From IMG/VR virus record IMGVR_UViG_2974610597_000001: a stretch of 64,000 bases of DNA, one strand, 5' to 3'. This DNA comes from Escherichia virus ESCO5 (Duplodnaviria; Heunggongvirae; Uroviricota; Caudoviricetes). This document shows positions 22,765 to 45,745 of this stretch, in pieces. Each line of letters starts with the position of its first letter. Position 1 is the first letter of the stretch. A model generated the notes under the pieces. It was not told the origin of the DNA. It made no database searches and saw only the letters and a list, made by a program, of their open reading frames with translations. Made by a program: the position numbers and the translations under genes.

Positions 22765-22776
22765 TTTGTTCTCCTG

Positions 22777-23999: not shown

Positions 24000-24006
24000 A
24001 CTTCAC

Positions 24007-25627: not shown

Positions 25628-25635
25628 TTTCTCTC

Positions 25636-26199
25636 CTAAATAGTTTTACTGTGATCGTGACAGTGTAATAAATGATGTATAGACCGTTGAGGATTTGTTT
25701 GACCTAATCTGTAAATGTGAAACAGATACATTCCCCGCATCAATCCTAACCTCTTTCCTTTTTCATGTAAAGTGCGAGAGAAAATTAAGTCGAATTGGAT
25801 AGATTTTTCTTCGAAAGGAATTTCATTCCACAATGATTTTCTAAAAAGCAAAAAGAAACCTGCCAGAGGTGTTCCGAAAGGAACTTCTTCAACACTCACT
25901 TTATGATATTCTCTTGCAATCTTAGCATATTCTATATGGTTTAGAATATCTGGATCATCGTTAATTTGGTTAGAGAAAAGCTGATAACCACTACCTAACC
26001 TGTTACAAGTTGCACCTATTACATCAAAAGGCGGGTTTGACATAACAAGCTCTTCAAGCATAGATGGTTGATCAGGCAGGAGGAACATTGTATCGGTATC
26101 TCTTAAGCACACCCAACTATCATCTGGAAGAACGGCAATAGCTTCATTGATAGCCTTGCCGATATTTCCTGTCAGATAGGGAGTAATATAATAAATCAT
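25636..26199 (-). CDS. Glycosyltransferase-like protein
   Basis: 187 aa; N-terminal Rossmann-like start MIYYITPYLTGNIGKAINEAI and CLRDTDTMF acidic motif; fourth member of cluster. Confidence 0.35.
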   Translation of the reverse strand: MIYYITPYLTGNIGKAINEAIAVLPDDSWVCLRDTDTMFLLPDQPSMLEELVMSNPPFDVIGATCNRLGSGYQLFSNQINDDPDILNHIEYAKIAREYHKVSVEEVPFGTPLAGFFLLFRKSLWNEIPFEEKSIQFDLIFSRTLHEKGKRLGLMRGMYLFHIYRLGQTNPQRSIHHLLHCHDHSKTI

Positions 26200-26215
26200 T
26201 CTCCCCTCCGTTATA

Positions 26216-26407
26216 TTAACTGTCAGCTACAATCCCACGTTTAATCATTTCTTGTTGGATTTGGATGACACGATCTCGTGCTTCCATATATTCTTTAAAA
26301 GATTCTTGGAGATGGTCACGAGCTACATCCCGTAGTTTAATCAGCTTGTCGTTTGTCACTTCTTGAAGAGAGATCTCGCCAGTTTCATTGGTCCCAAGCG
26401 TTTTCAT
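26216..26407 (-). CDS. Small hypothetical protein
   Basis: 63-aa ORF. Confidence 0.3.
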   Translation of the reverse strand: MKTLGTNETGEISLQEVTNDKLIKLRDVARDHLQESFKEYMEARDRVIQIQQEMIKRGIVADS

Positions 26408-26663
26408 TTACAACCTCCTTAATAGCTACTGCACAGTTCTTACAAATACATTGACCTTTGTTCTTAGAAATTTCAATGTAAGGTTCATTTTCGTTTTCTC
26501 CGCGTCGTGAATCGTATATTACAGTATTGAAGCAGACAACGCAAATGTTTTTAATAACAACATATTTTTGCACTTTTTGTTTAGTGCGAAAATTTACTTC
26601 AATGACTTCTCCCATCAGTGAATCTCCCCTAAAATGTTGTTTTGAGACATTACTGCGGAGCAT
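26385..26663 (-). CDS. Small zinc-ribbon protein
   Basis: CVVC ... CICKNC pattern; exact start uncertain. Confidence 0.3.
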   Translation of the reverse strand: MLRSNVSKQHFRGDSLMGEVIEVNFRTKQKVQKYVVIKNICVVCFNTVIYDSRRGENENEPYIEISKNKGQCICKNCAVAIKEVVNENAWDQ

Positions 26664-26962
26664 TCTACAGCATCATGAGTCCTTGCAAAACGCTCCCACA
26701 GCACAGCATCTACTTTAAGAACCACACAAGGATAAATACTGTCGTTGATCATATCAATGCTATATTTATCTACATCCTTTTCATCTTCCATAAACAAAGT
26801 AGCGTATGCTTCCAAATGTTTACGGGTGTAGTATACGTCCTCTTCGGTAAGACCGACAACCAGGTAACTTGCTACAACAACAGTATTATCTTCTTGCATT
26901 TTAACTCCCCTTTGGTAGATAGAAACCATGCACTTTATCTCGATAAACAAGACGCATATCAC
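26615..26962 (-). CDS. Hypothetical protein
   Basis: 115-aa ORF. Confidence 0.3.
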   Translation of the reverse strand: MICVLFIEIKCMVSIYQRGVKMQEDNTVVVASYLVVGLTEEDVYYTRKHLEAYATLFMEDEKDVDKYSIDMINDSIYPCVVLKVDAVLWERFARTHDAVECSAVMSQNNILGEIH

Positions 26963-27422
26963 GCTCCCAGTGTGTCCTTATATTCCGTTTCTTGAAGTAT
27001 AGAGCACCTTTAGTAACATCTAAAACAGACCGCAATTCAGGAAAATGTTTCTCTAAATAAAGTAAACGCTCCGCTATTGCTTTTGCTTCCTGCCATTTAT
27101 CTTTCTCTGTCACGTTAAAAGTTTTCGCATATGAGAATTGCCCTTTCTGGAACAAGACTCCCTTGACTGTGTTAGGGAAGTAGGCATCATTTCTTCTGTT
27201 GATTACCACATTCCCAACGGCATTCATTCCTTTTTTACCCAGACCGCGACCTTCTGCGTAAATTGCACAAGCTAATAGAATTTTATCATTATATTGCTTT
27301 GTACATTTGTGAACTACTTTAGCGGTTTTTACGTTTGCAGCTTCGGCTTTCGCCACAACAGGTGTAAATGTAAAAGCAGTTAAGGATAGTAACGCAACTG
27401 TTACAAAGTTTTTTATCAGCAA
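26901..27422 (-). CDS. Secreted cell-wall hydrolase, SleB-like (candidate endolysin)
   Basis: 173 aa; N-terminal signal/anchor MLIKNFVTVALLSLTAFTFTPVVAKA; LLACAIYAEGRG ... GNVVINRRNDAYFPNTVKGVLFQKGQFS matches SleB/Hydrolase_2 core. Confidence 0.6.
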   Translation of the reverse strand: MLIKNFVTVALLSLTAFTFTPVVAKAEAANVKTAKVVHKCTKQYNDKILLACAIYAEGRGLGKKGMNAVGNVVINRRNDAYFPNTVKGVLFQKGQFSYAKTFNVTEKDKWQEAKAIAERLLYLEKHFPELRSVLDVTKGALYFKKRNIRTHWERDMRLVYRDKVHGFYLPKGS

Positions 27423-27483
27423 ATTTTGCCTCCTTTTTAAGTTAACGAATTTCTAGTATAACACGATAGAGGCTTTATTGCAA

Positions 27484-27503
27484 GAGGGGGATTTCTCCCC
27501 CTC
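27484..27503. other. GC stem-loop in intergenic region (possible terminator after terD)
   Basis: GAGGGGGA-TTTC-TCCCCCTC perfect inverted repeat; no strong T-run. Confidence 0.3.
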
Positions 27504-27518
27504 AAAATCATTTGTTAA

Positions 27519-28121
27519 TTATGGACATTCATACCATTCTTTTTTACCACCGAAGGCCATTACCACATCGCAAATATCCAGACCAGCTTTACCTACACCA
27601 TATGCTTTCAGCTTCCATTCTCCATCTTCACGAACCAGGGAAGCCACGTGGCAGATTGTGTTGCCAGCTACTTCAGGAGCCAGGAAGTCAAAATCCAGAA
27701 TTTCCACATTACGCTCGGAGTCGAAGATTTTAAGCATACCTTCAGAAGCATGACCAAAACGTTTCAGACCTGTATCATCATCAATAGTCAGAACAAAGGC
27801 AATCTCTTGTGCATCAGGAGAGATTTTAGCCAGAGTAATATCAATCTGCTCCATGCTGCCAGTTCCATCACGAACATCGTCACCAGCAAAGGTAGAACGT
27901 TCAGGATCAAACTTATTAGCATAGCAAACCAGATGACGTGCAGACAGCATTTCAGGATTGCCAGCGGCATTGTGACGACAAACCAGTGCACTTACATCCA
28001 GATCCAGTTTAGAATCAGATTTCCAAGAGAACTCCAGGCGTAGTTCTTTCAGAGCCGGAGCAACTTTCTTCAGGGAAATTTTTTCGCTAGAGCCTTTTTT
28101 CAGGGAAATTTTATCAGTCAT
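27519..28121 (-). CDS. terD: TerD-family stress protein
   Basis: 200 aa; N-terminal ISLKKG...EKISLKK, DLDVSA, GDDVRDG, IAFVLTIDD, REDGEWKLKAYG match conserved TerD-domain blocks. Confidence 0.8.
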   Translation of the reverse strand: MTDKISLKKGSSEKISLKKVAPALKELRLEFSWKSDSKLDLDVSALVCRHNAAGNPEMLSARHLVCYANKFDPERSTFAGDDVRDGTGSMEQIDITLAKISPDAQEIAFVLTIDDDTGLKRFGHASEGMLKIFDSERNVEILDFDFLAPEVAGNTICHVASLVREDGEWKLKAYGVGKAGLDICDVVMAFGGKKEWYECP

Positions 28122-28136
28122 CTTTTGTCTCCTCTA

Positions 28137-28406
28137 TTATTTAAGTGTAATACCAGTTACAGTCAATTCTACTTCCAAAAGCTTAGATGTGTTTTGGATT
28201 GATACTAATTGTGCATGATGGTTTAGTTCTACAGCAGAATAATCATTTTCCCCATCATCTACTTTTAAATAAACAATGATTTCACTAAGGTCTAAACCAT
28301 TTTCGTCAAATGCATTTTCATAGACGAAAGTATCTCCTACATCCAAATCTTTAATGGTAAGGCATCGTTTATTTACTTTTTGCTCATCAATTTCGAAGTT
28401 TAACAC
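28137..28406 (-). CDS. Hypothetical protein (paralog of 29428..29772)
   Basis: 89 aa; shares DLDVGDTF(V/M)Y..A(F/Y)(D/E)(E/D)(N/A)GLD core with the 114-aa paralog. Confidence 0.35.
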   Translation of the reverse strand: MLNFEIDEQKVNKRCLTIKDLDVGDTFVYENAFDENGLDLSEIIVYLKVDDGENDYSAVELNHHAQLVSIQNTSKLLEVELTVTGITLK

Positions 28407-28635
28407 TTCTTCCTCCTAATATTATCTCCGGTTTATATATACGAAGAATTATAGCATTTTCATTTTCTTTGTCAACCCATTCTTCATAATCAGGCCATAC
28501 ATGAATCTCTACTCTACTTACAATATCTTCCATTCGCACAGTCCCAATGAAATACTCTTTGAGACTGCACATAATGAAAGCTTCTCTCTCGCGCCAATAA
28601 TTTTCTATGACTTGAGAGGCAAGCTCGTCGATCAT
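28387..28635 (-). CDS. Hypothetical protein
   Basis: 82-aa ORF with start/stop overlaps. Confidence 0.3.
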   Translation of the reverse strand: MIDELASQVIENYWREREAFIMCSLKEYFIGTVRMEDIVSRVEIHVWPDYEEWVDKENENAIILRIYKPEIILGGRSVKLRN

Positions 28636-29426
28636 TTTTTAGCACCTACTTTAACAACCCACTCTCCGAACTCTTCAGATAAGAGTTTGTCATAAAGCTC
28701 TGAATCTGTCAAGTCTAAATCTTTAATGCCAATAAAACCAACATTATCATAAGCATTTGCCAGTTCTTTCAGGAAGCCAAACTTCTCATTACCAACGCCA
28801 ACCATGAACCAATAAATAGGTTTATTCTTATTCTCTTCAATAAGACGACGAACAGCACTAGGATCACCATTCTCACCATCCGTCTGGAAGAATACAACAC
28901 CAGGGGTAACGTCAGCACCTGGTTCAGACACAGCTACAACCTTTTCACGCTCTACAGATACTGTTTCAGTTTTACCAAGCAGACGATTAAAGAAGCCTTT
29001 CTTTGGAGCCTCTTCTTGTACCACTTGTTTAGTGGTAATATATTTGGTAACAGTGCCAAAATACTCATCGTAGATATCTGCCATTACAGGGGCGTAATTT
29101 GTTCCACCTCCGATACGAACATTACGCATACATTTACCAACATAGTCATCGTAAACGTCTGCTGTTGCTGGAGTAAGCTCTTGGGAACTCGTATTGAAGG
29201 CCCACATATCAATTTGTTGATTATCGTCGAACAGCATACCAAAAGGAAGCAGTTTACCTACAAAATCACTCACTACCCCACTAGAATATAGACCATGCAT
29301 ACTACCAGAAATATCTAGAGCACATGCTACACGAAGAACAATCTTACCTTCATTCAGGTTCTTATTCTTTTTCAGAGAGAAAGCAAGGTTTTCTTGACGT
29401 TTTTTCAGGCTGATTTTATCGGACAT
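28632..29426 (-). CDS. von Willebrand factor A domain protein with TerD-like N-terminus (TerY-like)
   Basis: 264 aa; N-terminus MSDKISLKK near-identical to terD start; MIDAS motif ALDISGSM. Confidence 0.6.
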   Translation of the reverse strand: MSDKISLKKRQENLAFSLKKNKNLNEGKIVLRVACALDISGSMHGLYSSGVVSDFVGKLLPFGMLFDDNQQIDMWAFNTSSQELTPATADVYDDYVGKCMRNVRIGGGTNYAPVMADIYDEYFGTVTKYITTKQVVQEEAPKKGFFNRLLGKTETVSVEREKVVAVSEPGADVTPGVVFFQTDGENGDPSAVRRLIEENKNKPIYWFMVGVGNEKFGFLKELANAYDNVGFIGIKDLDLTDSELYDKLLSEEFGEWVVKVGAKK

Positions 29427-29427
29427 A

Positions 29428-29772
29428 TTATTTCTCCTTCTTAAGTGTAATGTTGGTAACTTCTAAATCTACTTCCACCATATTTGTATCTGGCGGGATG
29501 CAATGAGTATAGCCTCGTTGTGCTAGTGATCCATTAATACAAATCGCACTGTTTGTGGAATTTTTAATGAACACCAAGTTACGGTAGGTATCCAACCCTG
29601 CGTCTTCATAGGCATCATAATACATGAATGTGTCCCCTACGTCAAGATCTTCGAAAGCAATAGGTAAATCCTGACCTTTTTCTTCTTGAATATTGAATCT
29701 AAACACGCATACCTCCTCTACCAATTTTGAAGCCCAAATCGTAAGCTTCCTTAGTAATCTTTTGTAACTCAC
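29428..29772 (-). CDS. Hypothetical protein (paralog of 28137..28406)
   Basis: 114 aa; FEDLDVGDTFMYYDAYEDAGLD core shared with paralog. Confidence 0.35.
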   Translation of the reverse strand: MSYKRLLRKLTIWASKLVEEVCVFRFNIQEEKGQDLPIAFEDLDVGDTFMYYDAYEDAGLDTYRNLVFIKNSTNSAICINGSLAQRGYTHCIPPDTNMVEVDLEVTNITLKKEK

Positions 29773-30262
29773 TTATAGGAAGTGTTACAAGAGGATCATC
29801 TTCTTCAATTTCCATCTTGTCATCTTCTGTTTCAATGAGAGTATTATGCACTTTGTGATAAGGGTTGTCAACACGTTTAAACTTATTCTTTTCTGTGCTG
29901 AAAAAACAATCTGGATCTTCTTCACCATCACCCCAACCTTGATTAGGATCTCCGTCAGATTGTTCTGTAGGGATTTCACCTGTAAAGTACTCTTCCAGCA
30001 CCATAGCAATACCGTCCCTTGGATTTGAGGAATGCATTAAATCACAAACCTTACCCCAATCCATAGCCCATTCGAACCGTTCACGAACGCCATTTTCATC
30101 CTCTTTTCCAGAGAAAACACAACCATAACTATCATAGTTGCCATACATCTCTTCAATAACAACACCGTCTTTCAAAAGAAAGAGGTAGCAAGGTGATCCG
30201 TCGAAAGAAGTAGAAAGGGCAGCTTTGCCCGATTCTTTGCACAAAAAACTAAAACAACCCAT
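29699..30262 (-). CDS. Hypothetical acidic protein
   Basis: 187-aa ORF, Asp/Glu-rich C-terminal half. Confidence 0.35.
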   Translation of the reverse strand: MGCFSFLCKESGKAALSTSFDGSPCYLFLLKDGVVIEEMYGNYDSYGCVFSGKEDENGVRERFEWAMDWGKVCDLMHSSNPRDGIAMVLEEYFTGEIPTEQSDGDPNQGWGDGEEDPDCFFSTEKNKFKRVDNPYHKVHNTLIETEDDKMEIEEDDPLVTLPISELQKITKEAYDLGFKIGRGGMRV

Positions 30263-30465
30263 TACAAACCCTCCTTCAGATTATCAAGAGCTACAGTGGT
30301 TTCACAAAATTCTCCATAAGCTTTATGATGTTCCAGAAAAGCTTCGGGTCCACCCCAGTCATTATCTTGTGTATTCCAACCATCAATAAAAGCATCTTCA
30401 ATGATTGTGATCAGTTCTTGTCGGGTTAACTGGATAATATTAGGATCGTTATCGTAGTTAAACAT
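30262..30465 (-). CDS. Small hypothetical protein
   Basis: 67-aa ORF. Confidence 0.3.
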   Translation of the reverse strand: MFNYDNDPNIIQLTRQELITIIEDAFIDGWNTQDNDWGGPEAFLEHHKAYGEFCETTVALDNLKEGL

Positions 30466-30631
30466 CTTCTTCCTCCTCTAAAATATGAAACCCGTAATTA
30501 CAATAGTCCTGAAAGGTTTCGTGCGCAAGATCTTCTATATCCTCTTGAGACATATCATCTTCAATTTCGATATCCACAACCTCATTGCATCCACACCAAG
30601 CAGTTTCAATATTCACTCGTAATATTTTCAT
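30458..30631 (-). CDS. Small acidic protein (missed by ORF track, 57 aa)
   Basis: ATG at 30631 overlaps upstream stop (TAATG); MKILRVNIETAWCGCNEVVDIEIEDDMSQ...; fills an otherwise empty 170-bp gap. Confidence 0.3.
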   Translation of the reverse strand: MKILRVNIETAWCGCNEVVDIEIEDDMSQEDIEDLAHETFQDYCNYGFHILEEEEDV

Positions 30632-30828
30632 TACTCCTCCTCCTCATTGAAGTCAATATCTGCAAGGAGTTCGAATTTACGGAAGTTACGACAACCTTCA
30701 TAAATATAACAATCACGACAAACTGCTAGAACACTTGGGGGATATATGCCTCCCATCGGTGCGAATCGTTTTTCGTCATCATAACGGACACCAATGTCTT
30801 CATCAATTATATAGATACGGATTCTCAT
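30631..30828 (-). CDS. Small hypothetical protein
   Basis: 65-aa ORF. Confidence 0.3.
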   Translation of the reverse strand: MRIRIYIIDEDIGVRYDDEKRFAPMGGIYPPSVLAVCRDCYIYEGCRNFRKFELLADIDFNEEEE

Positions 30829-31937
30829 TTACCAAGCCCTCGTTTCACAGCAGCTACCATCCCGTCTTCCAGAGATTGAACTTCATTAATATAATCAACA
30901 CGAGCAGCACGGGCTTCCGTATTGATGCGGTTAGTTTCTTCCAACATCTTAACCAAGTTTTCCTGATCGTGACGCAGAGTTTCAATATCCAACACTTGAC
31001 GGTTAGCCAGTGCTGCTGCTTCGATCTGATTCTGTGTGGCAAGATCGCTACCTAGTTTAATTGCCAGGTTAAATTCATCAAGAACGTTATTCTGCGTCTC
31101 TGCTGCTTTCATTTGACGTAAGCTCTCGATATACATTGAGAAGTTAGCAGAGTAAGCAGGAATAACATTATTTACTATGTTACGCGCAGATCGCATTAAG
31201 CTTGCAGAAACTTTTTGCATACCTTGTACACGCGGTCCCATTTGGACACACAGTAGGCGCAACGCCTTTAAATCTGCAATACGAATCTCCAGGAGATCCA
31301 AAGTATCTCGGATCACTTGTCGCTGTTCTACGGCATCTTCTGGAAGAGCAGCCAAAGCTTGTTCTTCTTTTTCATAGGTTGCTGTTAGAAGCTGCATATC
31401 TCGGTTCAAACTTGCAGCATATTGTCCAATAGCTTGGTGTAGCTTTTCAAGATATACCAAGGAATCTTCTTCTTTGCGAATATCCATTTGAAGGTTCTTT
31501 ACCAACTCTTCAATACGGTTATTAACATTATCAAACTCCCCAAACAGGTCTTCTTTCATACCCATAACTTTTTTAATGAGTTTAGTAATACCCTTGCTTT
31601 GTTTAATAGAGTTTGGATCAAGTTGTTTTGCCTGTTTAATCAAGGCTGTGAGTCGTTCACTCATCTGATCGCCTTGATTACTACGTTGATGTTTTAACAC
31701 CTCGGCATTCAAGGAACGCAAGGTTGTTCCTGCCTCTGCCCCAATCTCTTCGATCTCTTGTCGGGTCATAGAAGGTAAAACTGGAACTTCTTGCGGTGCT
31801 GCTGGTGCATAAACAGGACTGGCATCTAACACACTTGGAGCAAATACAGATTTACTTGCATCTGTTGTTGCAGCGAATACACTCATTTCAGACTTCTTCT
31901 GACCACCAGTAGCTGCTTTTAAAAATGGACTTGTCAT
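30825..31937 (-). CDS. TelA-like (toxic anion resistance family) coiled-coil protein, tentative
   Basis: 370 aa, long alpha-helical/coiled-coil architecture with Ala/Pro-rich N-terminus; size, composition and Ter-gene context suggest TelA/KlaA family; no diagnostic motif verified. Confidence 0.3.
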   Translation of the reverse strand: MTSPFLKAATGGQKKSEMSVFAATTDASKSVFAPSVLDASPVYAPAAPQEVPVLPSMTRQEIEEIGAEAGTTLRSLNAEVLKHQRSNQGDQMSERLTALIKQAKQLDPNSIKQSKGITKLIKKVMGMKEDLFGEFDNVNNRIEELVKNLQMDIRKEEDSLVYLEKLHQAIGQYAASLNRDMQLLTATYEKEEQALAALPEDAVEQRQVIRDTLDLLEIRIADLKALRLLCVQMGPRVQGMQKVSASLMRSARNIVNNVIPAYSANFSMYIESLRQMKAAETQNNVLDEFNLAIKLGSDLATQNQIEAAALANRQVLDIETLRHDQENLVKMLEETNRINTEARAARVDYINEVQSLEDGMVAAVKRGLGK

Positions 31938-32524
31938 TCTTCATTCTCCTCTTCTGCATCTCTTATATATGGTGAAACACCGTACTCTTTAGCTACTTTA
32001 ACCCAATCATCCCATTTATACAACCATAATTTTCCTTCAGTTCCTTCTTTATCTGATTTCAACCACATGTTAGGTTGCTTGCCTGGGTACATGCGATTAG
32101 GTTTACGATTATAACCTCTAACACATCTTGTCGCAAACCTATCTACCAGAACAAGAACATATTTATATTCGTGGTTCAACGGCTCTTTGGAAGTGGCTTT
32201 AGGATTAGCTCCTAATTCTGCTGCCAGTTTTTGCCAATGAGCACCGTGTCTACTAAACTTACCCATACAACCATCAATAGCATGAGCAATTTCGTGCTTC
32301 ATTGTATCCACGATCATATCTCTTGTAGAGTTCTTATGCAAGTGCCAATTTACAACAACAATTTTATCTCGGTAGTTGCACCAACCGAAAGAGTTATTAA
32401 CTTTGTTTCTAACACAAGCTTTATATCCTGCTTCACGTAACATGTTGTAGTAAACAGGAAAATCTTCTTTTATTTCCTGCATCACTTCCCACCACAAGAG
32501 TTGCAAGTCTCTCTCGGTATGCAT
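31934..32524 (-). CDS. SprT-like zinc metallopeptidase domain protein
   Basis: 196 aa; HExxH motif in MKHEIAHAIDGCMGKFSRHGAHW, preceded by conserved Trp-rich N-terminus. Confidence 0.5.
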   Translation of the reverse strand: MHTERDLQLLWWEVMQEIKEDFPVYYNMLREAGYKACVRNKVNNSFGWCNYRDKIVVVNWHLHKNSTRDMIVDTMKHEIAHAIDGCMGKFSRHGAHWQKLAAELGANPKATSKEPLNHEYKYVLVLVDRFATRCVRGYNRKPNRMYPGKQPNMWLKSDKEGTEGKLWLYKWDDWVKVAKEYGVSPYIRDAEEENEE

Positions 32525-32527
32525 AAC

Positions 32528-33121
32528 TTACACCTTAAAAGCGAAATGCGTGGTCGTGGCTTCAAAATCAGGGCCAGATAAACTTGCACTGAAATCTGAA
32601 ATATTTGTAATTAAAAAGCTTTTATGCATACCTAACACAGCCACGCTTTCAATATCTTCTACTAACATTTCAATCATGTTAGAAACATGGCTGAACGTAG
32701 AGTTTTGTTTTTTGATGGTGTAGAAAGAAAGATTCCCACCTGCTATATAAGACACCTCTTCAAAATCTTTAATCGTATATTGTGTGCCATCAGTAAAGAA
32801 AATGGTAGCTTTATTAGTAGCACGTTTCTTGTTTTTTGGTCCTTTTTTACGTTTACTGCGAGTAGGCAAACCGTTTGGAAATACCGTAGCTACAAATTCT
32901 TCAGGAGAAACCTCCTTACCGAAATCATAACCGTAAGAAACAGCGTCTATAAACTCGTCGTCTTCATTTTTAAAATAATGAAAATAGGGCCAATTTGAGA
33001 GATTATCGAGCATCTTATGCTCATCCACAGCAGAGAACGTATCCCTCAAAGCACGTGTGATTTGCAAAGCATTAGGCAAACTTTTAACACCTGTAATGGA
33101 AGTACGAATAGAAATTGTCAT
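32528..33121 (-). CDS. Hypothetical protein
   Basis: 197-aa ORF with KR-rich central patch. Confidence 0.35.
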   Translation of the reverse strand: MTISIRTSITGVKSLPNALQITRALRDTFSAVDEHKMLDNLSNWPYFHYFKNEDDEFIDAVSYGYDFGKEVSPEEFVATVFPNGLPTRSKRKKGPKNKKRATNKATIFFTDGTQYTIKDFEEVSYIAGGNLSFYTIKKQNSTFSHVSNMIEMLVEDIESVAVLGMHKSFLITNISDFSASLSGPDFEATTTHFAFKV

Positions 33122-33135
33122 TGTTTTTCTCCTTA

Positions 33136-33573
33136 TTAACGTCGCTTGCTACGAGATGAACTCTTTTTACTTAAAGGACTATTGTAAGATTTACGAGTTG
33201 TATAGCTACTATTTGTTTTAAAAGTTTGTCTCGGCTTTTCATAAGTTTTTATCTCTTGTTTAGGCTTACTATAAAAATTAGTTTTCGGTTTAGGTGTATT
33301 ATAATGCTTATTAATAATCGTTCTGTTATCGTTATAATCCCCACTGCTACGATTACTACCGCCACTCATCATATGCCCTAACAACATACCTGTAGCAAAC
33401 TCACCAACACCGCTACTACTAGAACCGCCACCATTGTTGATAATAGTTGTATCTCCGTCAGATCCTTGTTGAGCGTATTGTTGAGGAGGTTGTTGGTATT
33501 GTGCAGGATTTGTTTCATCCTCGCAAGCTGTTAAAAAGATACAACCAATTAAAATCAGGGCTAGTTTTTTCAT
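33136..33573 (-). CDS. Lipoprotein, Gln/Gly/Ser-rich
   Basis: Start refined to ATG at 33573 giving MKKLALILIGCIFLTAC (signal peptide plus lipobox LTAC). Confidence 0.45.
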   Translation of the reverse strand: MKKLALILIGCIFLTACEDETNPAQYQQPPQQYAQQGSDGDTTIINNGGGSSSSGVGEFATGMLLGHMMSGGSNRSSGDYNDNRTIINKHYNTPKPKTNFYSKPKQEIKTYEKPRQTFKTNSSYTTRKSYNSPLSKKSSSRSKRR

Positions 33574-33760
33574 ATTTGCTTTCCTCGTTTTGGCTATTAA
33601 TACATCTGTGTTTGAAATCTCCAGAGAAGCAATAAAGTTGCTCTCCATCTCGGTATAAACTCACTTTACTGCCGTTGATTACGCTTGTCAATACAAAAAT
33701 TACAACAAACAACCCTATTGCAAAACAAATATTTTCAAACACAACCAACAAGTATTTCAT
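33515..33760 (-). CDS. Small membrane protein
   Basis: 81 aa with one hydrophobic helix (VVFENICFAIGLFVVIFVL). Confidence 0.3.
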   Translation of the reverse strand: MKYLLVVFENICFAIGLFVVIFVLTSVINGSKVSLYRDGEQLYCFSGDFKHRCINSQNEESKYEKTSPDFNWLYLFNSLRG

Positions 33761-34107
33761 TTTAAAAATACCTCATCATCAGTTTCATTATCCCAGAAGA
33801 ACAAGTCCCAACCATTCGGATCATTCCATTTAGCTGCTGGAGAAGTCCATATTTGCTCGATATCAATATTCAAAACTTCACCGTTTCGTTTTGAAACAGC
33901 TTTAGTTAATTCCCAACGGGATACAGGCTCCACTTCCCCTGAACCACTCCCACAACAAGCTACCACATTAGGAGGCAAATTAATTGGATCTTTGGTCACA
34001 ATCATAACGCTTACCCCAGGGTAAACTTTTGAAAGATAATCTAAAACGTAATCCACATCACCAGATAAATCCCAAACAAGTTCTTGAATTTCATCAAAAT
34101 TATTCAT
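33757..34107 (-). CDS. Hypothetical protein
   Basis: 116-aa ORF. Confidence 0.35.
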   Translation of the reverse strand: MNNFDEIQELVWDLSGDVDYVLDYLSKVYPGVSVMIVTKDPINLPPNVVACCGSGSGEVEPVSRWELTKAVSKRNGEVLNIDIEQIWTSPAAKWNDPNGWDLFFWDNETDDEVFLK

Positions 34108-34149
34108 AAGTCTCTCCTATAAAATAGCCTCCCGAAGGAGGCTCATCTA

Positions 34150-35223
34150 TTAAACAGCAGCTTCTTCTTTTTCAGGGAAGATAAAGCTTGCAATAACACC
34201 AAGAGATAATGTGCCTAGAACAATCATCAGACTTACGTTAGGGGAAATATCATGCGGGAGGAATGACCACTTGGCATGAAGTGTTTCACCGAACGGGTGA
34301 TACATAAGTTTAGCACCAACAAACACCAGAACCACAGCAACAGCTTTCTCTAAGTGAACCAGATATTTCACAGCTACACTTAACACAAAGAAAAGTGCAC
34401 GTAAACCAAGAACAGCCATCAGCATTGCAGAATAAACTAGCAGAGGTTCTTGTGTCACACCGATTACAGCCGGAACTGAATCAAAAGAGAAGACAATATC
34501 TGTAAGCTCAATAACAAACACACAAAGAAGAGCAGGAGTTGCATATTTAATACCATTCTTAATGGTAATGAACTTTTCACCATCTAGTGCATTGTGCACA
34601 GGCAGAACTTTACCTACTAAACGAACAGCCCAATGCTTAGAGTAATCAATATCCTCTTCTTCGTCACCACCTTTGATGATAGCCACGGCAGACCAAGCTA
34701 CAATCAAACCGAACAACACTTGGACCGACCAATGAAGGTTAAACAAAGCGGTCCCTGCTGCAACAAAAATACCTCGGAAGACAATGGCTCCTGCAATCCC
34801 CCAAAGTAAAATCTTATGTTGAAGATGTGTGCTCTTAATTCCAAAGCTTGCAAAAATTGCCATGAATACCATCAGGTTATCTACAGAAAGACTCTTTTCC
34901 AACACATAGCCACTTAGGAAAAGCGCGGCAAACTCTTTACCATGTTCTACCCAAATGAATGCGTAATATCCTAAAGCTAAAGCAATCCAAAAAACAGACC
35001 AAAGCAAAGCAGATTTAATTCCAATTTCTTTATTTTTACCATGTTCTACCCAAATGAATGCGTAATATCCTAAAGCTAAAGCAATCCAAAAAACAGACCA
35101 AAGCAAAGCAGATTTAATTCCAATTTCTTTATTCTCTTTATGACCAAAGAAATCGATACCAATAGACAATGCCAAAATACCAACTAAAACAACTACATCA
35201 ATAATTGGGAAACCGAGTTGCAT
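34150..35223 (-). CDS. terC: TerC-family integral membrane protein, containing an in-frame 33-aa tandem duplication
   Basis: 357 aa, multiple TM helices; signature LEKSLSVDNLMVF; segment KNKEIGIKSALLWSVFWIALALGYYAFIWVEHG occurs twice consecutively. Confidence 0.75.
   Translation of the reverse strand: MQLGFPIIDVVVLVGILALSIGIDFFGHKENKEIGIKSALLWSVFWIALALGYYAFIWVEHGKNKEIGIKSALLWSVFWIALALGYYAFIWVEHGKEFAALFLSGYVLEKSLSVDNLMVFMAIFASFGIKSTHLQHKILLWGIAGAIVFRGIFVAAGTALFNLHWSVQVLFGLIVAWSAVAIIKGGDEEEDIDYSKHWAVRLVGKVLPVHNALDGEKFITIKNGIKYATPALLCVFVIELTDIVFSFDSVPAVIGVTQEPLLVYSAMLMAVLGLRALFFVLSVAVKYLVHLEKAVAVVLVFVGAKLMYHPFGETLHAKWSFLPHDISPNVSLMIVLGTLSLGVIASFIFPEKEEAAV
34939..35136. repeat. Near-perfect 99-bp tandem direct duplication inside terC coding sequence
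   Basis: 34939..35037 and 35038..35136 identical over about 95 bp (accatgttctacccaaatgaatgcgtaatatcctaaagctaaagcaatcc...), diverging only in last few bases. Confidence 0.9.
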
Positions 35224-35240
35224 TCTTTTCTCCTCTCTTT

Positions 35241-35301
35241 GCGGGGAACTATTCCCCGCTTCATTTGATATATATCTTACTCTTTTTAAGAACTATGTCA
35301 A
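35241..35301 (-). promoter_or_regulatory. Promoter plus 5'-UTR hairpin cassette driving terC
   Basis: Minus-strand reading: TTGACA - 16 nt - TAAGAT, then hairpin GCGGGGAA-TAG-TTCCCCGC, then SD AGAGGAG and ATG; same architecture and near-identical hairpin as cassette at 57455..57510. Confidence 0.5.
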
Positions 35302-35304
35302 CAC

Positions 35305-35526
35305 TTATTTTGTTGAATGAGAGGAAAAGATTCCTCGTAATACCGCCAGAATAAACGAAACACAAACCACGGTCCAGAAGGTTACTGGGACAGTGATATC
35401 TGCATGACCCATAACTTCAGCAACATAGTTGTAAGCCAGCAACAGTAACCAAGCTGGAATCAAACTAAGCATAAAAGCAATAACAAAAAAGCTTACCACC
35501 GCAATAATACCTGCAAAAACACCCAT
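35305..35526 (-). CDS. Small membrane protein
   Basis: 73 aa, two hydrophobic helices. Confidence 0.3.
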   Translation of the reverse strand: MGVFAGIIAVVSFFVIAFMLSLIPAWLLLLAYNYVAEVMGHADITVPVTFWTVVCVSFILAVLRGIFSSHSTK

Positions 35527-35538
35527 ACTAATCTCCTC

Positions 35539-36012
35539 TTAAAGTTTATAAATAGTCACATCGTGACCTGTTTTTACTAAAGTTTCTTCAATCATCACTT
35601 GGATGATAGCCCAATTACCTCCAGCATATCCAGCGCCAATCATAGGTAAGCCGATCTTACATTTTTGGTCACGGAGAAGCACATCATTAGCCATAGCTAT
35701 TAGTGCATCGTAAAGTGCATCATAGTCCAACTGACGACCTTTAGCATTGTATCCGTAACGGTATTGCCCGTATAGATTATATACCAAAGGGTCTGATTGT
35801 TCGTCTGGCACCCCTAAACTAAAAGAACCTAACTTACTTTGATCACCAGCCATTGTGTCTAAATCTGCCGCATATGCATAAGGGAATGCTCGTTTAATTT
35901 GCGGAGCAATTCCTGCCCCCATATTACACATACAATTGCAACAATGAGCAATAACAGTTACTTCACCTGCTTTAGCGGCATCAATAAGATTACCTGTTTT
36001 CATTTTAAGCAT
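35539..36012 (-). CDS. Macro-domain protein (ADP-ribose binding/hydrolase family)
   Basis: Start refined to ATG at 36012 (TAAGGAG 6 nt upstream); VIAHCCNCMCNMGAGIAPQI and KIGLPMIGAGYAGGNW correspond to the two Gly-rich ADP-ribose-binding loops of macro domains. Confidence 0.55.
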   Translation of the reverse strand: MLKMKTGNLIDAAKAGEVTVIAHCCNCMCNMGAGIAPQIKRAFPYAYAADLDTMAGDQSKLGSFSLGVPDEQSDPLVYNLYGQYRYGYNAKGRQLDYDALYDALIAMANDVLLRDQKCKIGLPMIGAGYAGGNWAIIQVMIEETLVKTGHDVTIYKL

Positions 36013-36025
36013 TTTTAGCTCCTTA

Positions 36026-36853
36026 TTACAGAATGTGTTGTTTTGTGTAACGATCCAAGAATTCAAAGTTTTCAGCATACTTTGAAATTCGGTTGTAACC
36101 TTCTCCCAAACATCCGAAGAAAAGTTGCTCTACATAGTAGTGTGGCAATTGGCTAAGAATGATTTTGAAGTCTTCGTGATTTTGGCCCATAAGATACTTA
36201 ATAGGACGAACAAGACACTGTGCATCACGTTCTTCATTAATCATTTTAACAAACGCTTCTGGTGTATTGATATAGTTAAAATTCAGTTTAGCTTCAGTAT
36301 CTGCTTGATTACCTTCATATTTTGCAAAATACAAGAAGTAAACATCATTTTTAACTTGATTTTCATCAAGAATCTCAATCAGTTTGTCTTCATGAGTTCC
36401 GGTGATATTTACATCATCAATGAACACAAGCTTCTTATCACCCCAGAATTCTTTGTTGCAGTAGAATGTATCCCCATCAATAAGTTTCTTACGACTAGCT
36501 TTATCCAAGAAACCATAATCGTTGATATAGCTAACTTTACGATGAATAATATCCAGTTCTGCTGAACGACCTTGATCATATTGTGCTTGCAACATATTAA
36601 AGTAATTAATAAAATGATCTGTCATCATTGTTGCAGCATTGTGCACATGGTTATAAGGAGAAGGGATGATAACAAATTGTTCCCCAATATGTTTCATTGC
36701 CACTTGAGCAAAAAACTGAAGTACCAATTCTTTACCCATACGACGCGCAGCTTGGTTACTACCAAATTTCAATTTTGAATAGTCTTTGATATCAAAAGTA
36801 GCAGTTTCCAGGTCATCAAATTTATTTGCAAAAATTTGAGTTTGATTACGCAT
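36026..36853 (-). CDS. Phosphoribosyltransferase-like protein (type I PRT fold)
   Basis: 275 aa; PRPP-binding-type motif KKLVFIDDVNITGTHED (hydrophobic run, two acidic residues, then T-G-T). Confidence 0.45.
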   Translation of the reverse strand: MRNQTQIFANKFDDLETATFDIKDYSKLKFGSNQAARRMGKELVLQFFAQVAMKHIGEQFVIIPSPYNHVHNAATMMTDHFINYFNMLQAQYDQGRSAELDIIHRKVSYINDYGFLDKASRKKLIDGDTFYCNKEFWGDKKLVFIDDVNITGTHEDKLIEILDENQVKNDVYFLYFAKYEGNQADTEAKLNFNYINTPEAFVKMINEERDAQCLVRPIKYLMGQNHEDFKIILSQLPHYYVEQLFFGCLGEGYNRISKYAENFEFLDRYTKQHIL

Positions 36854-37502
36854 TTACAATTTCTCCTCTTTTAAGTTTCTCTAGTAAGTCGTTAGGGTTC
36901 TTAATATGACAGAAGTTAATCCCTATGTCAACACATTTACCATCAAATTCTTCGCTGTCCCCAACATGTAAAATCTCTTCAGCCTTCAAAGGAATGCTTG
37001 AATATGTGGCGGTCCTAACAAAGAATCTAGGATCTGGTTTACATAACAGATGTTCGTCTGAAAAATGCATAAATTCAAAACAATTCCAACTGTCGAACAT
37101 ACAAGCACGACGCAAAATATCCCCAGATATAAAATTAGTATTGCTTTTAATACTAAGATCATATTTACCAGACAAGTATAGCAAACAAACTGGCAAATCT
37201 AAAGCGATATGTGGAGGAAATTTAAGAAACCATTGCTCACAATCAAAACGCATTTGTGCAGATTCTACAGGGGTTAAACCTATCTTTCTTCCCAACATAT
37301 TCCATGCATATGCTACACCTTCTGCACACCCATTTAGTGCAGCATTATCCATAATTTCTTTGGCATCTTTATATGCTTCTTTTGCCGCACGTTCAGACAT
37401 TCTACCATATGTAGCAATAGTGTGCGTACGTGCATCTGCATAGTTTTGATTGGCAGAAATAAGAGTATTCCATACATCAAAAGAAATATGTTTTATTGTC
37501 AT
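36846..37502 (-). CDS. HAD-superfamily hydrolase-like protein
   Basis: N-terminal ISFDVWNTL (degenerate motif I), CKPDP (motif III Lys), HVGDSEEFD (motif IV); start codon uncertain (ATG at 37502 or 37520). Confidence 0.4.
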   Translation of the reverse strand: MTIKHISFDVWNTLISANQNYADARTHTIATYGRMSERAAKEAYKDAKEIMDNAALNGCAEGVAYAWNMLGRKIGLTPVESAQMRFDCEQWFLKFPPHIALDLPVCLLYLSGKYDLSIKSNTNFISGDILRRACMFDSWNCFEFMHFSDEHLLCKPDPRFFVRTATYSSIPLKAEEILHVGDSEEFDGKCVDIGINFCHIKNPNDLLEKLKRGEIVNA

Positions 37503-37503
37503 A

Positions 37504-38109
37504 CTAGGCCCACCACGCATCAAGATTTAAGTTACTGTCTACCACAACTTGTTCTATGTGGTAGCCTTTTATCTGTATCCCACTGTTCAAGAGCATATCA
37601 TATGCTTCATTGAAACGCAACTTATCTTCTGCGGAATATAAGCGAGCATTGTAAAATCGGTAATCAAGTTCTTCAGCATTAGAAGAAATACGGAAGAAGT
37701 TTGTTTCTACTTCAGGATCACTTGCTGAAGTTTTAATGTGAACTTCTCCGTAATTTTCTTTGCTTAGATCCATGAAAAGAACACAGGCAACATGTTTAAA
37801 CATTCGTTCCAGTTTGTAACGAACAACATTGAAACCTGCGTTCTCAAGTTTTTCTACACATTGCAACATTAACGTAGTGTCGAGATCGCTTTGATACTTT
37901 GTTAACATACGATCACGTTGAGACTTTGTATCCCGATGTAAATCAATTGTTGTGCATTTGGCACCAATGATCTTAGCTGCTTTCATCAACTCTTCAGAAC
38001 TAACGTTAGATAAAGTAAGATGAAAATGGGCTTTCCACACTTTTTTAGCAGGGACACCAAAAGATTTATCCCCACTATTCGGCATGTTGACTACTACACT
38101 ATGTTGCAT
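37504..38109 (-). CDS. Hypothetical protein (weak 2H-phosphoesterase-like features)
   Basis: 201 aa; one clear H-x-T-x motif (HFHLTLS), second motif degenerate (VHIKTS). Confidence 0.25.
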   Translation of the reverse strand: MQHSVVVNMPNSGDKSFGVPAKKVWKAHFHLTLSNVSSEELMKAAKIIGAKCTTIDLHRDTKSQRDRMLTKYQSDLDTTLMLQCVEKLENAGFNVVRYKLERMFKHVACVLFMDLSKENYGEVHIKTSASDPEVETNFFRISSNAEELDYRFYNARLYSAEDKLRFNEAYDMLLNSGIQIKGYHIEQVVVDSNLNLDAWWA

Positions 38110-38124
38110 TACTTATCTCCTCAC

Positions 38125-38349
38125 TTAAAATGGAAGTCTTTGAAGTTCATCTCCTCCGATATCAAGTAATTTAGCAACATCTCGATCAGAAAGCAACTCT
38201 TTTCTTTGTAAAATATCCACAAGGGTTGCAAGAATGTCCTTAACGTCCCGATCACTGTTCTTCAAAAGTTCTCCTGCCGTCCCTACCCTATCTCCTACAG
38301 CAAAATATGTAACCATAAAACCTCCTACGCTAATCTGATTGCCAACCAC
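38125..38349 (-). CDS. Small hypothetical protein
   Basis: 74-aa ORF downstream of nrdG. Confidence 0.3.
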   Translation of the reverse strand: MVGNQISVGGFMVTYFAVGDRVGTAGELLKNSDRDVKDILATLVDILQRKELLSDRDVAKLLDIGGDELQRLPF

Positions 38350-38800
38350 TCGCCGTTTTGGTCCATAATCTTTGATTATCTGACCCTCTGAAAGGTTTTG
38401 TGGTTGGATTGTTTATTTCATACTTTCCGTCTACAATAATGTCAACAAGATTTTTAATATACAAAGGCACTTCCTCAAAAGTATATCCTGTATACACCAT
38501 TATATCTTTGCTTGACCCATAAACGTCTCTAACCTTTTCTATAAGGTTTTTAACATTGTAAATATTCTGCGGATCTAATGGTTCTCCTCCTAAAATTGTT
38601 AAACCTTTTACAAACGGTCTTGACAAATCTTTTAAAACTTGCTCTACATTTTCGTTAGTGAACGGTTTCCCATAAGAATAAGACCAGGCTTTCTGGTTAA
38701 AACAGCCACGACAACCGTGGCTACAACCACTAACCCAGAGGGAGCACCTAACTCCCTCACCATTAATAAGATCTACAGGTTCATATCCTGCAAAATTCAA
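38330..38800 (-). CDS. nrdG: Anaerobic ribonucleotide reductase activating protein (radical SAM)
   Basis: 156 aa; radical-SAM cluster motif CSHGCRGC (Cx3Cx2C) near N-terminus; overlaps nrdD stop (ATGA). Confidence 0.75.
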   Translation of the reverse strand: MNFAGYEPVDLINGEGVRCSLWVSGCSHGCRGCFNQKAWSYSYGKPFTNENVEQVLKDLSRPFVKGLTILGGEPLDPQNIYNVKNLIEKVRDVYGSSKDIMVYTGYTFEEVPLYIKNLVDIIVDGKYEINNPTTKPFRGSDNQRLWTKTASGWQSD

Positions 38801-40611
38801 AGATGTTTCTCCCTTTGCAAAACTTCCTGCATTTTACCTTTGTTATAAGGCCGTGAATTAGGGGCAGAAAGATACCCTGATACACGTCTAACTACAGAAA
38901 TAGTTTCTTCTTCATGGTTGCCACAATTAGGACACTCAAACCCTTTAGCCGTTGCCTTAAATTCTCCATGAAAACCACACTTAAAGCATTGATCCACGGG
39001 CTGATTAATACCAAAATAGTGAATATGTTCATAAGCGTAGTCTACTAAAGTCTCCAAAGCTTCTAAGTTATTCTTTAAGTTTGGTGTTTCGACATAACTT
39101 ATGTTACCACCATTGCTAATCTGTGCAAAACCTGCTTCATAATCCCATTTTTCAAAAGGATTTGTTACCAACCATACAGGTTGATGAAAAGAATTAGTAA
39201 GATAGTCTCTTTCTACCAGACCTGGATATTTTTCATTTAAAGCTGTTGCAAATTTATAGCACAAGGATTCTGCTGGAGTTCCATAAAGACTAAATGCCAA
39301 CTTAGATCGTTCTTTAAACACAGCACACACATCTTTCATATGTTGCAGAATGTTTTTACCTAGTTCCTTTTTATCTTTTTCCTCTGGATAAAGGATTTCC
39401 AAAGCTTCGGCAAGACCTACATAACCAATACTAATAGAAGCATAACCACCTTCAAACAAAGCACCAATTTCATCGTTGGCATTTAAACGCGCTAAAGCCC
39501 CTTCCATGAAAAGAATAGGGTTTTCAGATGCTTTGGTATGTCTGATACGGTTTACACGTAGCATGTGAGCATCGTAGGCTATCTCCATATGTTTATTAAG
39601 AAGATCGGTGAAAGATTCTCCTTTACTTCTCGCTTCCGCAGCAATCAGAGGCAAGTTGATAGAAACTACTCCAAGGTTGAATCGTCCATCATATTTTTCT
39701 CCTTGTTCGGTGGCATAGTACGACAAAAAGGAACGACAACCCATACTCGTAACGGTACCATCTGCTGATCCCGTAACTTCTTTGTTCAAAGGAACAGAAA
39801 TAAAATCTGGATAAATACGATCAGCACAACATGCCAAAGCTTGTTGCTTAAGGTCGTAGTTAGGATCACTAGGTTTCATGTTAACACCTTCTTGTAAAAA
39901 GAAAATAACTTTAGGGAATACAGGCGTTACATGATCTTTACCTAGACCGTTACTATGCACTTTAAGATAGTTAGCTGTGATCATTCTGCCAAAAACAGAG
40001 GTATCCAGACCCATACTGATTGTAATAAAAGGAGATTGTCCATTAACACTCATTAAAGTGTTAACCTGATACAAAAGAGTTTGCATAGCGTCATATACAT
40101 CTTGTTCGGTCATTTCTAGGGCTTCTTTCCTTGCATAACAACCGTAGCGACGTTTGGTTATCTCCATGTTTTTAAGGAAACTGGCTTCAACATAAGGACT
40201 AAGACCTTTATCAATGTGCGCACACGTCTGACCTCCATACTGACTGGAGGCAACAGCTTGGATGATTTGAGTTAGCACTGTAGTAGCTACTCCAATAGAT
40301 TTTGGTTTTTCTATCTGTGCAGCACCGATCTTAAAACCATTCTCTAACATATCTTGATAATTAACAAGACAACAGTTTGTAAGAGGAGAGAGCAGATAAT
40401 CCAAGTCGTGAATATGTCCAAAACCTTCTGTATGCCATTCTGACAAGTTTTTTGGCAGTATCTGTGTCATTGCCATATGTTTGCTTAAAATCCCCGCCAA
40501 GAGATCCCTGTGCGTGTTAACAAGGTGGGAAGGTTTGTTTGCATTCTCTCTAGTGTATGTTTCTGAAGTGCGATCTAAAAAAGAAAAAACATCTTGGTAC
40601 AAATCTTTCAT
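38797..40611 (-). CDS. nrdD: Anaerobic ribonucleoside-triphosphate reductase (class III RNR)
   Basis: 604 aa; C-terminal zinc ribbon CFKCGFHG...CPNCGNHE and glycyl-radical motif RRVSGYL. Confidence 0.85.
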   Translation of the reverse strand: MKDLYQDVFSFLDRTSETYTRENANKPSHLVNTHRDLLAGILSKHMAMTQILPKNLSEWHTEGFGHIHDLDYLLSPLTNCCLVNYQDMLENGFKIGAAQIEKPKSIGVATTVLTQIIQAVASSQYGGQTCAHIDKGLSPYVEASFLKNMEITKRRYGCYARKEALEMTEQDVYDAMQTLLYQVNTLMSVNGQSPFITISMGLDTSVFGRMITANYLKVHSNGLGKDHVTPVFPKVIFFLQEGVNMKPSDPNYDLKQQALACCADRIYPDFISVPLNKEVTGSADGTVTSMGCRSFLSYYATEQGEKYDGRFNLGVVSINLPLIAAEARSKGESFTDLLNKHMEIAYDAHMLRVNRIRHTKASENPILFMEGALARLNANDEIGALFEGGYASISIGYVGLAEALEILYPEEKDKKELGKNILQHMKDVCAVFKERSKLAFSLYGTPAESLCYKFATALNEKYPGLVERDYLTNSFHQPVWLVTNPFEKWDYEAGFAQISNGGNISYVETPNLKNNLEALETLVDYAYEHIHYFGINQPVDQCFKCGFHGEFKATAKGFECPNCGNHEEETISVVRRVSGYLSAPNSRPYNKGKMQEVLQREKHL

Positions 40612-40689
40612 TATTAATCCTTATTTTGTGAGTAGAACTATTATTCTACCTCTTTCAACCGAAAAAAGCTTTGAGGGAAATCAAAAAAG

Positions 40690-40714
40690 GCGCAAAGTGC
40701 GCCTTTAAGTTTTA
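40690..40714 (-). terminator. Rho-independent terminator
   Basis: Minus-strand hairpin AAGGCGCACTTTGCGCCTT followed by TTTTTTGATTT, immediately after stop of 40715..42130. Confidence 0.5.
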
Positions 40715-42130
40715 TCATTTGGAGAGGAATTGTCTTCCCATGATCTTACCGTTCTTCACAGCGGTCCCATCGTGTCCATTGTAATCCCAGGTTCCATCGA
40801 TATTACGCAAGAAGCTATCACGAACAGTATAGGCTTTACCGTTCTCTACTTTACTTTCTTCCACAATGATTGCCATAACAAGCTTATTTTCAATTTCGGT
40901 AGTAACCGATTCTTTGATACCCTCTGTAACTTCACGATCATATTGGATATAAACTCGCTCCTCGGTTACTTGCACGTCTACCACATTTTTAAATGTGTAG
41001 GTCTGTTGCGTAGTGTAGAGGACACGAACGACACTCTTCTTACCTACCGGAGGCTTCTTACGAGGCTTACGGTAACGTGGTTTAGGGTTGTTAGTTGGAA
41101 GCCAACCAACAATATCCCGATCATATCCAACATGACCCCAAGTGAAATGCGTAGCCGATCCACTATCCGTAGTTCCGTCACGAAAGAGAACTTCTACGTG
41201 ACCACCACAAGGGCGGTGTCCACCATTATTATAGTTGTATTTTGCCGTGCGCGGGAGAATGAAGTATTCTTTAATCGCCCACTCTTCCAGATTGTCGATA
41301 TTCCAAGTGAATACTGTTCCCTTAGCAACATCTGTTTGACCATTGTTGAAGCGAACCTGCACGAAATCTTCCGAAGGCATAACACCTGTGTTCGGCAGAT
41401 ATTCAAATGCAGTATCTTCCGCTACAAACTGTTCTTCCTCTTGCTCCTCAATACTTGGCACAGGCGCAGCTTCATCGTATTTCGCAGCAAACATATTTTT
41501 AAATTCTTGAGCCGTGACTTCTACAAGGCCGCGATCACCAGTAGCAGCAGAGTGTGGGCGTGGTAAATCCCCAACTTCAATATGCATTGCATCTAAGCCT
41601 GCTTGACGATCAAAGAAGATAACCTTGCGGAATTGTTTATCTTTATATTGTGGCAGTTCATACATACTTGGATCGATTGTCTTCAAACGTTCAGCATCTT
41701 CTGGCTTCCAGAAGCTTTTACCTGTTGCAAATCTAAAGTCTACCAGTAGTTTAACAACATCTCCTAATGATAAACTATCTGCATCTACGAAAACGTCTTC
41801 GATTCCCAATAACCCTGATTTCTTAAGAATCAAATCTAACATGTAACCTCCTGTGGTTTGTTCTGCGTCTGGATAACGATCAACACTGGTGCTGGTTACA
41901 CCGTTTATTTCACCAGTGGAGGCATTGTAGGAAATATATGGGAAGGTCATATCGTTCATTGCAAAATCACCTGAACAGGTTGGATCATCTTCTCCCTCCC
42001 AGCCATACACCTTCACAATACCTTCACACAATTTGTCATACACACCAGCGCGACGTGCTGCTTCAGCAACTTCCTGTTTACGGGCAAATTTATTAATCAT
42101 GATTCCTCCTGTTAATTGCCATAGATGCAC
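40715..42130 (-). CDS. Hypothetical protein (471 aa)
   Basis: Long ORF, no recognisable catalytic motif; basic C-terminal patch PKPRYRKPRKKPPVGKK. Confidence 0.4.
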   Translation of the reverse strand: MHLWQLTGGIMINKFARKQEVAEAARRAGVYDKLCEGIVKVYGWEGEDDPTCSGDFAMNDMTFPYISYNASTGEINGVTSTSVDRYPDAEQTTGGYMLDLILKKSGLLGIEDVFVDADSLSLGDVVKLLVDFRFATGKSFWKPEDAERLKTIDPSMYELPQYKDKQFRKVIFFDRQAGLDAMHIEVGDLPRPHSAATGDRGLVEVTAQEFKNMFAAKYDEAAPVPSIEEQEEEQFVAEDTAFEYLPNTGVMPSEDFVQVRFNNGQTDVAKGTVFTWNIDNLEEWAIKEYFILPRTAKYNYNNGGHRPCGGHVEVLFRDGTTDSGSATHFTWGHVGYDRDIVGWLPTNNPKPRYRKPRKKPPVGKKSVVRVLYTTQQTYTFKNVVDVQVTEERVYIQYDREVTEGIKESVTTEIENKLVMAIIVEESKVENGKAYTVRDSFLRNIDGTWDYNGHDGTAVKNGKIMGRQFLSK

Positions 42131-42650
42131 GAGGTTCGGCTATGGCTGTTGCATAAATATATGGATGACCTTGTGGGGACAATCTTGTTCCGAATGACCC
42201 TAATTCTAAACCATTCATGTCTTCCACGTCAAGCCCTATTTCTGTTTCTACAATTCTTGTTTGGACTTTGTAGTAGGTCCAGAAGAAGTATCGCATTTCT
42301 TCGGCATACTCTTTCACTTCACCAAAGCTGGGATAGAACTCAATCAACTCCAGCTTCAAGAAGATGTTGAAGTGAGAATCATCCAACACTTCCTCTGTGC
42401 GGTAACATGGTGTCAGGGCCATGTAGGGATGACCAGCGATAAACTCGTAGCCATCCTTTTCCATTTGCAAGAATGATTGCTCGGCACTGGCAACATAAAA
42501 CTTCCCATTAGGATGCCCCAAAGGAGCATCTTCTTTGCCAGGTGGCAGTGTGAATGCCAAAATATCTGCATCCACTAAATAAGGAACATCTAACATTTCA
42601 GCAAAGCGTCCATAACTCTGGATGGCTTCGGCAATCACACCTGTGTTCAT
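42093..42650 (-). CDS. Hypothetical protein
   Basis: 185-aa ORF. Confidence 0.35.
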   Translation of the reverse strand: MNTGVIAEAIQSYGRFAEMLDVPYLVDADILAFTLPPGKEDAPLGHPNGKFYVASAEQSFLQMEKDGYEFIAGHPYMALTPCYRTEEVLDDSHFNIFLKLELIEFYPSFGEVKEYAEEMRYFFWTYYKVQTRIVETEIGLDVEDMNGLELGSFGTRLSPQGHPYIYATAIAEPRASMAINRRNHD

Positions 42651-42898
42651 GACCTTCCTCCTGTGCGGAAAGCGCGTTTAGTAATGTTGGACATAATGAT
42701 TAAATCTTGTAAAGTCATATCTGGGAACTGTTGTTCTAAAACTCCCTCGACAGCCCCTATAATATCTGACAATTCAACAAGTTGCATTATTTTGCAATCC
42801 TGCTCAACAGCATCAAAAAGTTCTTCTACTTCCTCTTTAATCTTTTCTATGCTGCCATAAGGTTGTTTCTTAATGTCTGTTATGTGATACCCTGCCAT
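42647..42898 (-). CDS. Small all-alpha NTP pyrophosphohydrolase-like (MazG-like) protein, tentative
   Basis: 83 aa; acidic helix pattern EEVEELFDAVEQ ... ELSDIIGAVE reminiscent of the EExxE/D metal-binding helices of MazG-like enzymes. Confidence 0.3.
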   Translation of the reverse strand: MAGYHITDIKKQPYGSIEKIKEEVEELFDAVEQDCKIMQLVELSDIIGAVEGVLEQQFPDMTLQDLIIMSNITKRAFRTGGRS

Positions 42899-44491: not shown

Positions 44492-44505
44492 GTATTTCTC
44501 CTCTC

Positions 44506-45015: not shown

Positions 45016-45025
45016 ACTCCCTCCT

Positions 45026-45744: not shown

Positions 45745-45745
45745 A

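Follow-up and report, generated by a model that had tools for sequence, protein, structure and literature searches.

A perfect 99-bp tandem duplication inside the terC gene of Escherichia phage ESCO5, as read in the 64,000-nucleotide stretch of DNA analysed here (the window), is almost certainly an assembly artefact in a superseded ESCO5 record and not biology. The two copies are perfect and adjacent, the duplication is absent from the independent assembly KX664695.3 and from relatives, and a duplication of the same length is found in the sister genome ESCO13. The authentic terC contains the 99-bp unit once, is 975 nt long and encodes 324 aa; it is an ordinary gene, conserved across phapecoctaviruses.

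A perfect repeat within an open reading frame

Tandem Repeats Finder (TRF) reported an array at 34936..35133 with a period of 99, 2.0 copies, 100% matches and no indels, and a direct string comparison of 34936..35034 with 35035..35133 gave 99 of 99 identical bases in directly adjacent copies. The unit reads TTTACCATG...CTTTATT, and a perfect repeat of this length is far beyond chance. An exhaustive scan of the 64-kb window for exact tandem duplications with periods of 20-400 returned this one only, the remaining TRF arrays being short and 72-83% matched. The bases bordering the array differ (C versus T, on both sides), which leaves the junction without microhomology. The surplus copy is either 35035..35133 or 34936..35034, and the junction between them is the sole sequence that would be unique to a real duplication. 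A 30-mer specific to that junction had no matches in viral, metagenome and genome contig collections, a result that carries little weight, as copies of this terC number only 0, 1 and 1 in the three collections.

The array lies in frame within a minus-strand ORF, in which residues 31-63 and residues 64-96 are the same (NKEIGIKSALLWSVFWIALALGYYAFIWVEHGK). The initial annotation, which described an in-frame 99-bp tandem duplication of a 33-aa segment inside terC, is borne out by TRF, by string comparison and by the translation; its coordinates (34939..35136) are displaced by 3 bp, and its figure of about 95 identical base pairs is too low. Its assignment of the gene also holds. The ORF matches Pfam PF03741 (4e-40, 137.9 bits against a cut-off of 27.8) and TIGR03718, ‘TerC/Alx family metal homeostasis membrane protein’ (318-335 bits; cut-off 246.4). 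A single stretch of alignment with TIGR03718 covers residues 10-318 of the 324-aa form and positions 6-302 of the 303 in the profile (318.6 bits), whereas the match of the 357-aa form is split into two stretches, which indicates that the family architecture has the segment once. A Kyte-Doolittle scan, which gives a crude estimate of topology, found nine hydrophobic segments in the 324-aa form and ten in the 357-aa form, in keeping with the extra transmembrane helix proposed in the initial annotation; the real protein is predicted to be roughly a nine-helix membrane protein. If the duplication were real, the extra helix would, on the same crude estimate, follow helix 2, and the orientation of the conserved core's seven downstream helices would be reversed.

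Table 1 Features of the window discussed in the text (about, approximate coordinates)
Feature	Position in window	Strand	Remarks
TerC/Alx family membrane protein gene as read in the window	34150..35223	-	357 aa; ORF list, Pfam TerC 4e-40
99-bp unit, gene-proximal copy	35035..35133	-	residues 31-63 of the 357-aa ORF
99-bp unit, gene-distal copy	34936..35034	-	residues 64-96 of the 357-aa ORF
Copy-to-copy junction	35034..35035	.	alignment of the window with KX664695.3 breaks exactly here
TerD/TerE-like gene, ESCO5_00069 (annotated TerE in ESCO13)	about 27519..28121
TelA-like gene, ESCO5_00060	about 30825..31937

The cluster around terC (about 27500..37000) resembles a tellurite-resistance gene set. 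Its order is TerD/TerE-like, TelA-like, SprT-like and then terC, and upstream of terC lie a putative phosphatase gene and a PRTase_3 / orotate phosphoribosyltransferase-like gene (36026..36853).

The window is a superseded version of the ESCO5 record

A megablast search of window 34000..35400 against GenBank phages identified the window as Escherichia phage ESCO5 (Phapecoctavirus; KX664695.3 / NC_047776.2) at 100% identity. Positions 80000..149268 of the ESCO5 record were aligned with the whole window: window 1..35034 corresponds to KX664695.3 84347..119380, window 35035..61219 to 119282..145466 and window 61165..64000 to 145467..148302, each with zero mismatches. Across KX664695.3 84347..148302, the window therefore differs from the current record only in two copy numbers, having 99 bp more in terC and 55 bp less at 61165..61219. 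The genome size of ESCO5 was given as 149,312 bp by Trotereau et al. in 2017 (SPAdes 3.1.1, MiSeq 2x250 reads; PMC5374246) and as 149,268 bp by the same group under the same accession in 2023 (SPAdes 3.5.1, with each phage genome in one contig; PMC10269720). Since 149,268 + 99 - 55 = 149,312, the net difference of +44 bp is exactly the gap between the 2017 and the revised sizes, which means that the window is the superseded 2016/17 version and that the depositors themselves took out the terC duplication.

The CDS for TerC in KX664695.3 is 975 nt long and its protein has a new accession (UXM65509.1), whereas most neighbouring genes retain their AOT accessions. The 357-aa protein was found only in UniRef/MetaClust (UniRef100 A0A1D8EQC2 / UPI000864A13A), where it is labelled ‘TelA superfamily protein’; it is absent from current NCBI and is encoded by no contig on record. 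The label on A0A1D8EQC2 is a misnomer for a TerC/Alx protein, the actual TelA-like gene being the neighbouring ESCO5_00060 (Table 1). We caution against reading version 3 of the record as proof when taken alone, because an assembly of this kind, made at k = 55, might in principle merge the two copies of a genuine 99-bp tandem repeat.

Copy number in relatives and independent contigs

Comparison with terC in related phages, which the initial annotation had suggested as a check, found the duplication in none of them. Each of the 53 GenBank phage records with coverage of the 1401-bp query (window 34000..35400) has a span of 1299-1303 bp, corresponding to one copy. Besides ESCO5, these matches are to 50-odd other phapecoctaviruses at 97-99% identity, and every record is ~99 bp shorter than the query and aligns as two pieces. 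The exact 324-aa protein is present on 21 contigs (Logan, ENA and NCBI assemblies), and one copy of the unit was counted in each of the ten contigs examined. Phage REC, a laboratory recombinant of ESCO5 and ESCO37, was considered as a further witness to the ESCO5 terC and proved uninformative, its terC lying in the ESCO37-derived part according to the published breakpoints (PMC10269720).

Several records assigned to other hosts also resemble these genomes closely. Campylobacter phage B15, Acinetobacter phage vB_AbaM_ABPW7 and Klebsiella phage ZCKP1 show 98.6-98.9% identity to the region at window 34000..35400, and Pseudomonas phage PsgM04F has a 91% match to ESCO13 11100..11900; matches this close between phages of different host genera suggest that hosts were wrongly assigned or that coliphages were present as contaminants.

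A 99-bp duplication at an unrelated locus in ESCO13

The strongest evidence for an artefact was obtained from ESCO13 (KX552041.2 / NC_047770.1), which was published in one paper with ESCO5 and shares with it the type of sequencing run and the SPAdes 3.1.1 pipeline. The 148 kb of it that were scanned at periods of 20-400 contain one exact tandem duplication, which is 99 bp in length (11414..11612) and lies inside ESCO13_00047, a hypothetical gene unrelated to terC and away from the locus-tag origin. In all six relatives that cover this region, the sequence is 89-99 bp shorter (exactly 99 in four), in agreement with one copy. The occurrence in two sister genomes of one perfect 99-bp duplication each, at unrelated loci and absent from relatives, points to the pipeline and not to biology as the source, and the ESCO13 duplication is probably also an assembly artefact, left uncorrected in the current record.

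Origin of the terC duplication

The SPAdes k series is 21, 33, 55, 77, 99 and 127 and contains both 99 and 55, although our literature search found no explicit citation for it, and the 2017 and 2023 papers on ESCO5 give no k list. Artificial overlaps of k bases at SPAdes contig termini are documented (PMC5923482; PMC5481147, 2017), as are redundancies that end up mid-contig in circular-looking phage assemblies (Turner et al. 2021, Phage Annotation Guide, PMC8785237). A circularly permuted or terminally redundant phage genome assembles as a ‘circle’, from which SPAdes emits a single contig whose first k bases equal its last k bases. If, as we infer, the final k was 99, and the contig happened to end within terC, then re-orienting the contig or joining its ends with the 99-bp overlap presumably left untrimmed would yield a perfect 99-bp tandem duplication at 35034|35035, over which Prokka would then call the 357-aa ORF. 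The ORF remains open because 99 is divisible by 3; an open ORF would also be expected from a real in-frame duplication.

An alternative interpretation, in line with the recent biological event that the initial annotation put foremost, is that the ESCO5 stock sequenced in 2015-16 carried a genuine and very recent in-frame duplication, produced by replication slippage or unequal recombination, that altered TerC topology through an extra second transmembrane helix and was later lost from the stock or collapsed in the version 3 re-assembly. The intact ORF with its in-frame repeat is compatible with such an event, a disrupted allele could persist given that terC is probably dispensable in laboratory culture, and de Bruijn assembly at k = 55 can go wrong over a 99-bp tandem repeat; nevertheless, we consider a genuine duplication very improbable, because it is missing from the depositors’ current record, from the 53 relatives and from the independent contigs examined, and because no contig on record encodes its product. 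It would also require two independent events of 99 bp, a SPAdes k value, in ESCO5 and ESCO13, which is very unlikely. The short boundary homology that is usual for such events, if not obligatory, is missing at the junction, and an allele with seven inverted downstream helices would probably be non-functional. The more specific scenario of a fresh 33-codon duplication in the 2015 stock that added a tenth helix and was lost on passage, its length matching that in ESCO13 by coincidence, is extremely improbable; if true, it would represent a natural experiment in membrane-protein topology inversion.

An assembly artefact, which the initial annotation had mentioned in brackets, is favoured instead by the single-copy terC of KX664695.3 and of the relatives and by the 99-bp duplication in ESCO13. 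It might have arisen by another route, such as the pasting by hand of two contigs with a k overlap, a path-extension defect of SPAdes 3.1.1 or a chimeric library molecule. The data agree with any process in which an overlap of size k stays untrimmed, the rotation of a circular contig is itself conjectural, and the position of the ESCO13 duplication away from the locus-tag origin makes the order of rotation and annotation uncertain. We nonetheless regard these other routes as exceedingly unlikely, since the methods published in 2023 describe single-contig genomes (PMC10269720) and a random chimera would not yield exactly 99 bp in two genomes. Whether by rotation, by pasting of two contigs or by a path-extension quirk, the verdict is the same and the mechanical detail alone differs.

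A 55-bp repeat in the current ESCO5 record

A third case is supplied by KX664695.3, in which a 55-bp unit is present as two perfect tandem copies (145412..145521), against one in the window (61165..61219); no other exact tandem duplication turned up in the 69 kb scanned of version 3 (record positions 80000..149268). The repeat falls exactly at the locus-tag wrap-around, ESCO5_00001 / ESCO5_00274, which we take as the ends of the annotated contig. A natural origin was considered because the doubled unit also occurs in PP129558.1 and OQ031492.1, but it is disfavoured by the state of both records: in PP129558.1 (phage vB_EcoM_01; 145331..146286), a run of Ns lies exactly over the junction of the copies, and in OQ031492.1 (MRostami-2023b, ‘UNVERIFIED’; 144972..145927), the repeat has scattered mismatches that we read as miscalls. 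The coordinates in OQ031492.1 are almost those of ESCO5 version 3, and both records look like reference-guided consensus sequences on that version that inherited its duplication; such a pattern would be expected of a consensus of this kind if the junction were crossed by no reads. The 55-bp repeat is probably another end-overlap artefact, now in RefSeq, and is less certain than the terC case.

Within the 55-bp unit, TTGACA...TAATAT is promoter-like; the unit is single in most relatives, and some relatives have about 272 bp extra at the 61200 site. A 501-bp query around 61200 gave 2-3 matches per phapecoctavirus record, and two segments of ~100 bp in the early-gene region (58972..59072 and 59758..59858) have about 85% identity to other intergenic places in ESCO5. 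These look like repeated intergenic modules that carry promoters and separate small early genes. At 56100..56181 there is an AT-rich, imperfect tandem array (period 29, 2.8 copies, 72% matches).

Implications for databases

The duplication has no biological importance, as ESCO5 has an ordinary 324-aa TerC/Alx gene; its relevance is to data hygiene. The artefactual 357-aa protein is still circulating in UniRef/MetaClust (A0A1D8EQC2), and current RefSeq/GenBank records apparently still contain errors of this class, both in ESCO13 (NC_047770.1 / KX552041.2, 11414..11612) and in ESCO5 (NC_047776.2 / KX664695.3, 145412..145521), the latter seemingly passed on to two later records of a reference-like kind. 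In scans of phage genomes assembled with SPAdes, any perfect tandem duplication with a length of 55, 77, 99 or 127 bp is worth flagging automatically.

Comparison with known systems

The underlying phage gene is a full-length member of the TerC/Alx family (PF03741 / TIGR03718); it differs from the family in being phage-encoded, and its 357-aa form in having an insertion without counterpart in the family profile. The misplacement of terminal redundancy inside phage contigs (PMC8785237) offers a parallel in that a redundancy generated by assembly sits mid-sequence and disturbs annotation, but the repeats in that case are genuine terminal repeats of virion DNA, whereas the ESCO5 99-bp unit is no biological terminal repeat; it is located within a conserved gene and occurs once in all relatives. 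A further comparison is with the well-known k-mer overlap artefact at SPAdes contig ends. The ESCO5 repeat differs from it in being internal and tandem and not at the record ends, so that a rotation or joining step has to be supposed, and in measuring 99 bp where 127 or 55 is more commonly quoted. It resembles that artefact in being a perfect direct repeat whose length is a k value of SPAdes, the assembler named in the ESCO5 paper, in its absence from other assemblies and in that a repeat of equal length recurs in a sister genome that went through this pipeline.
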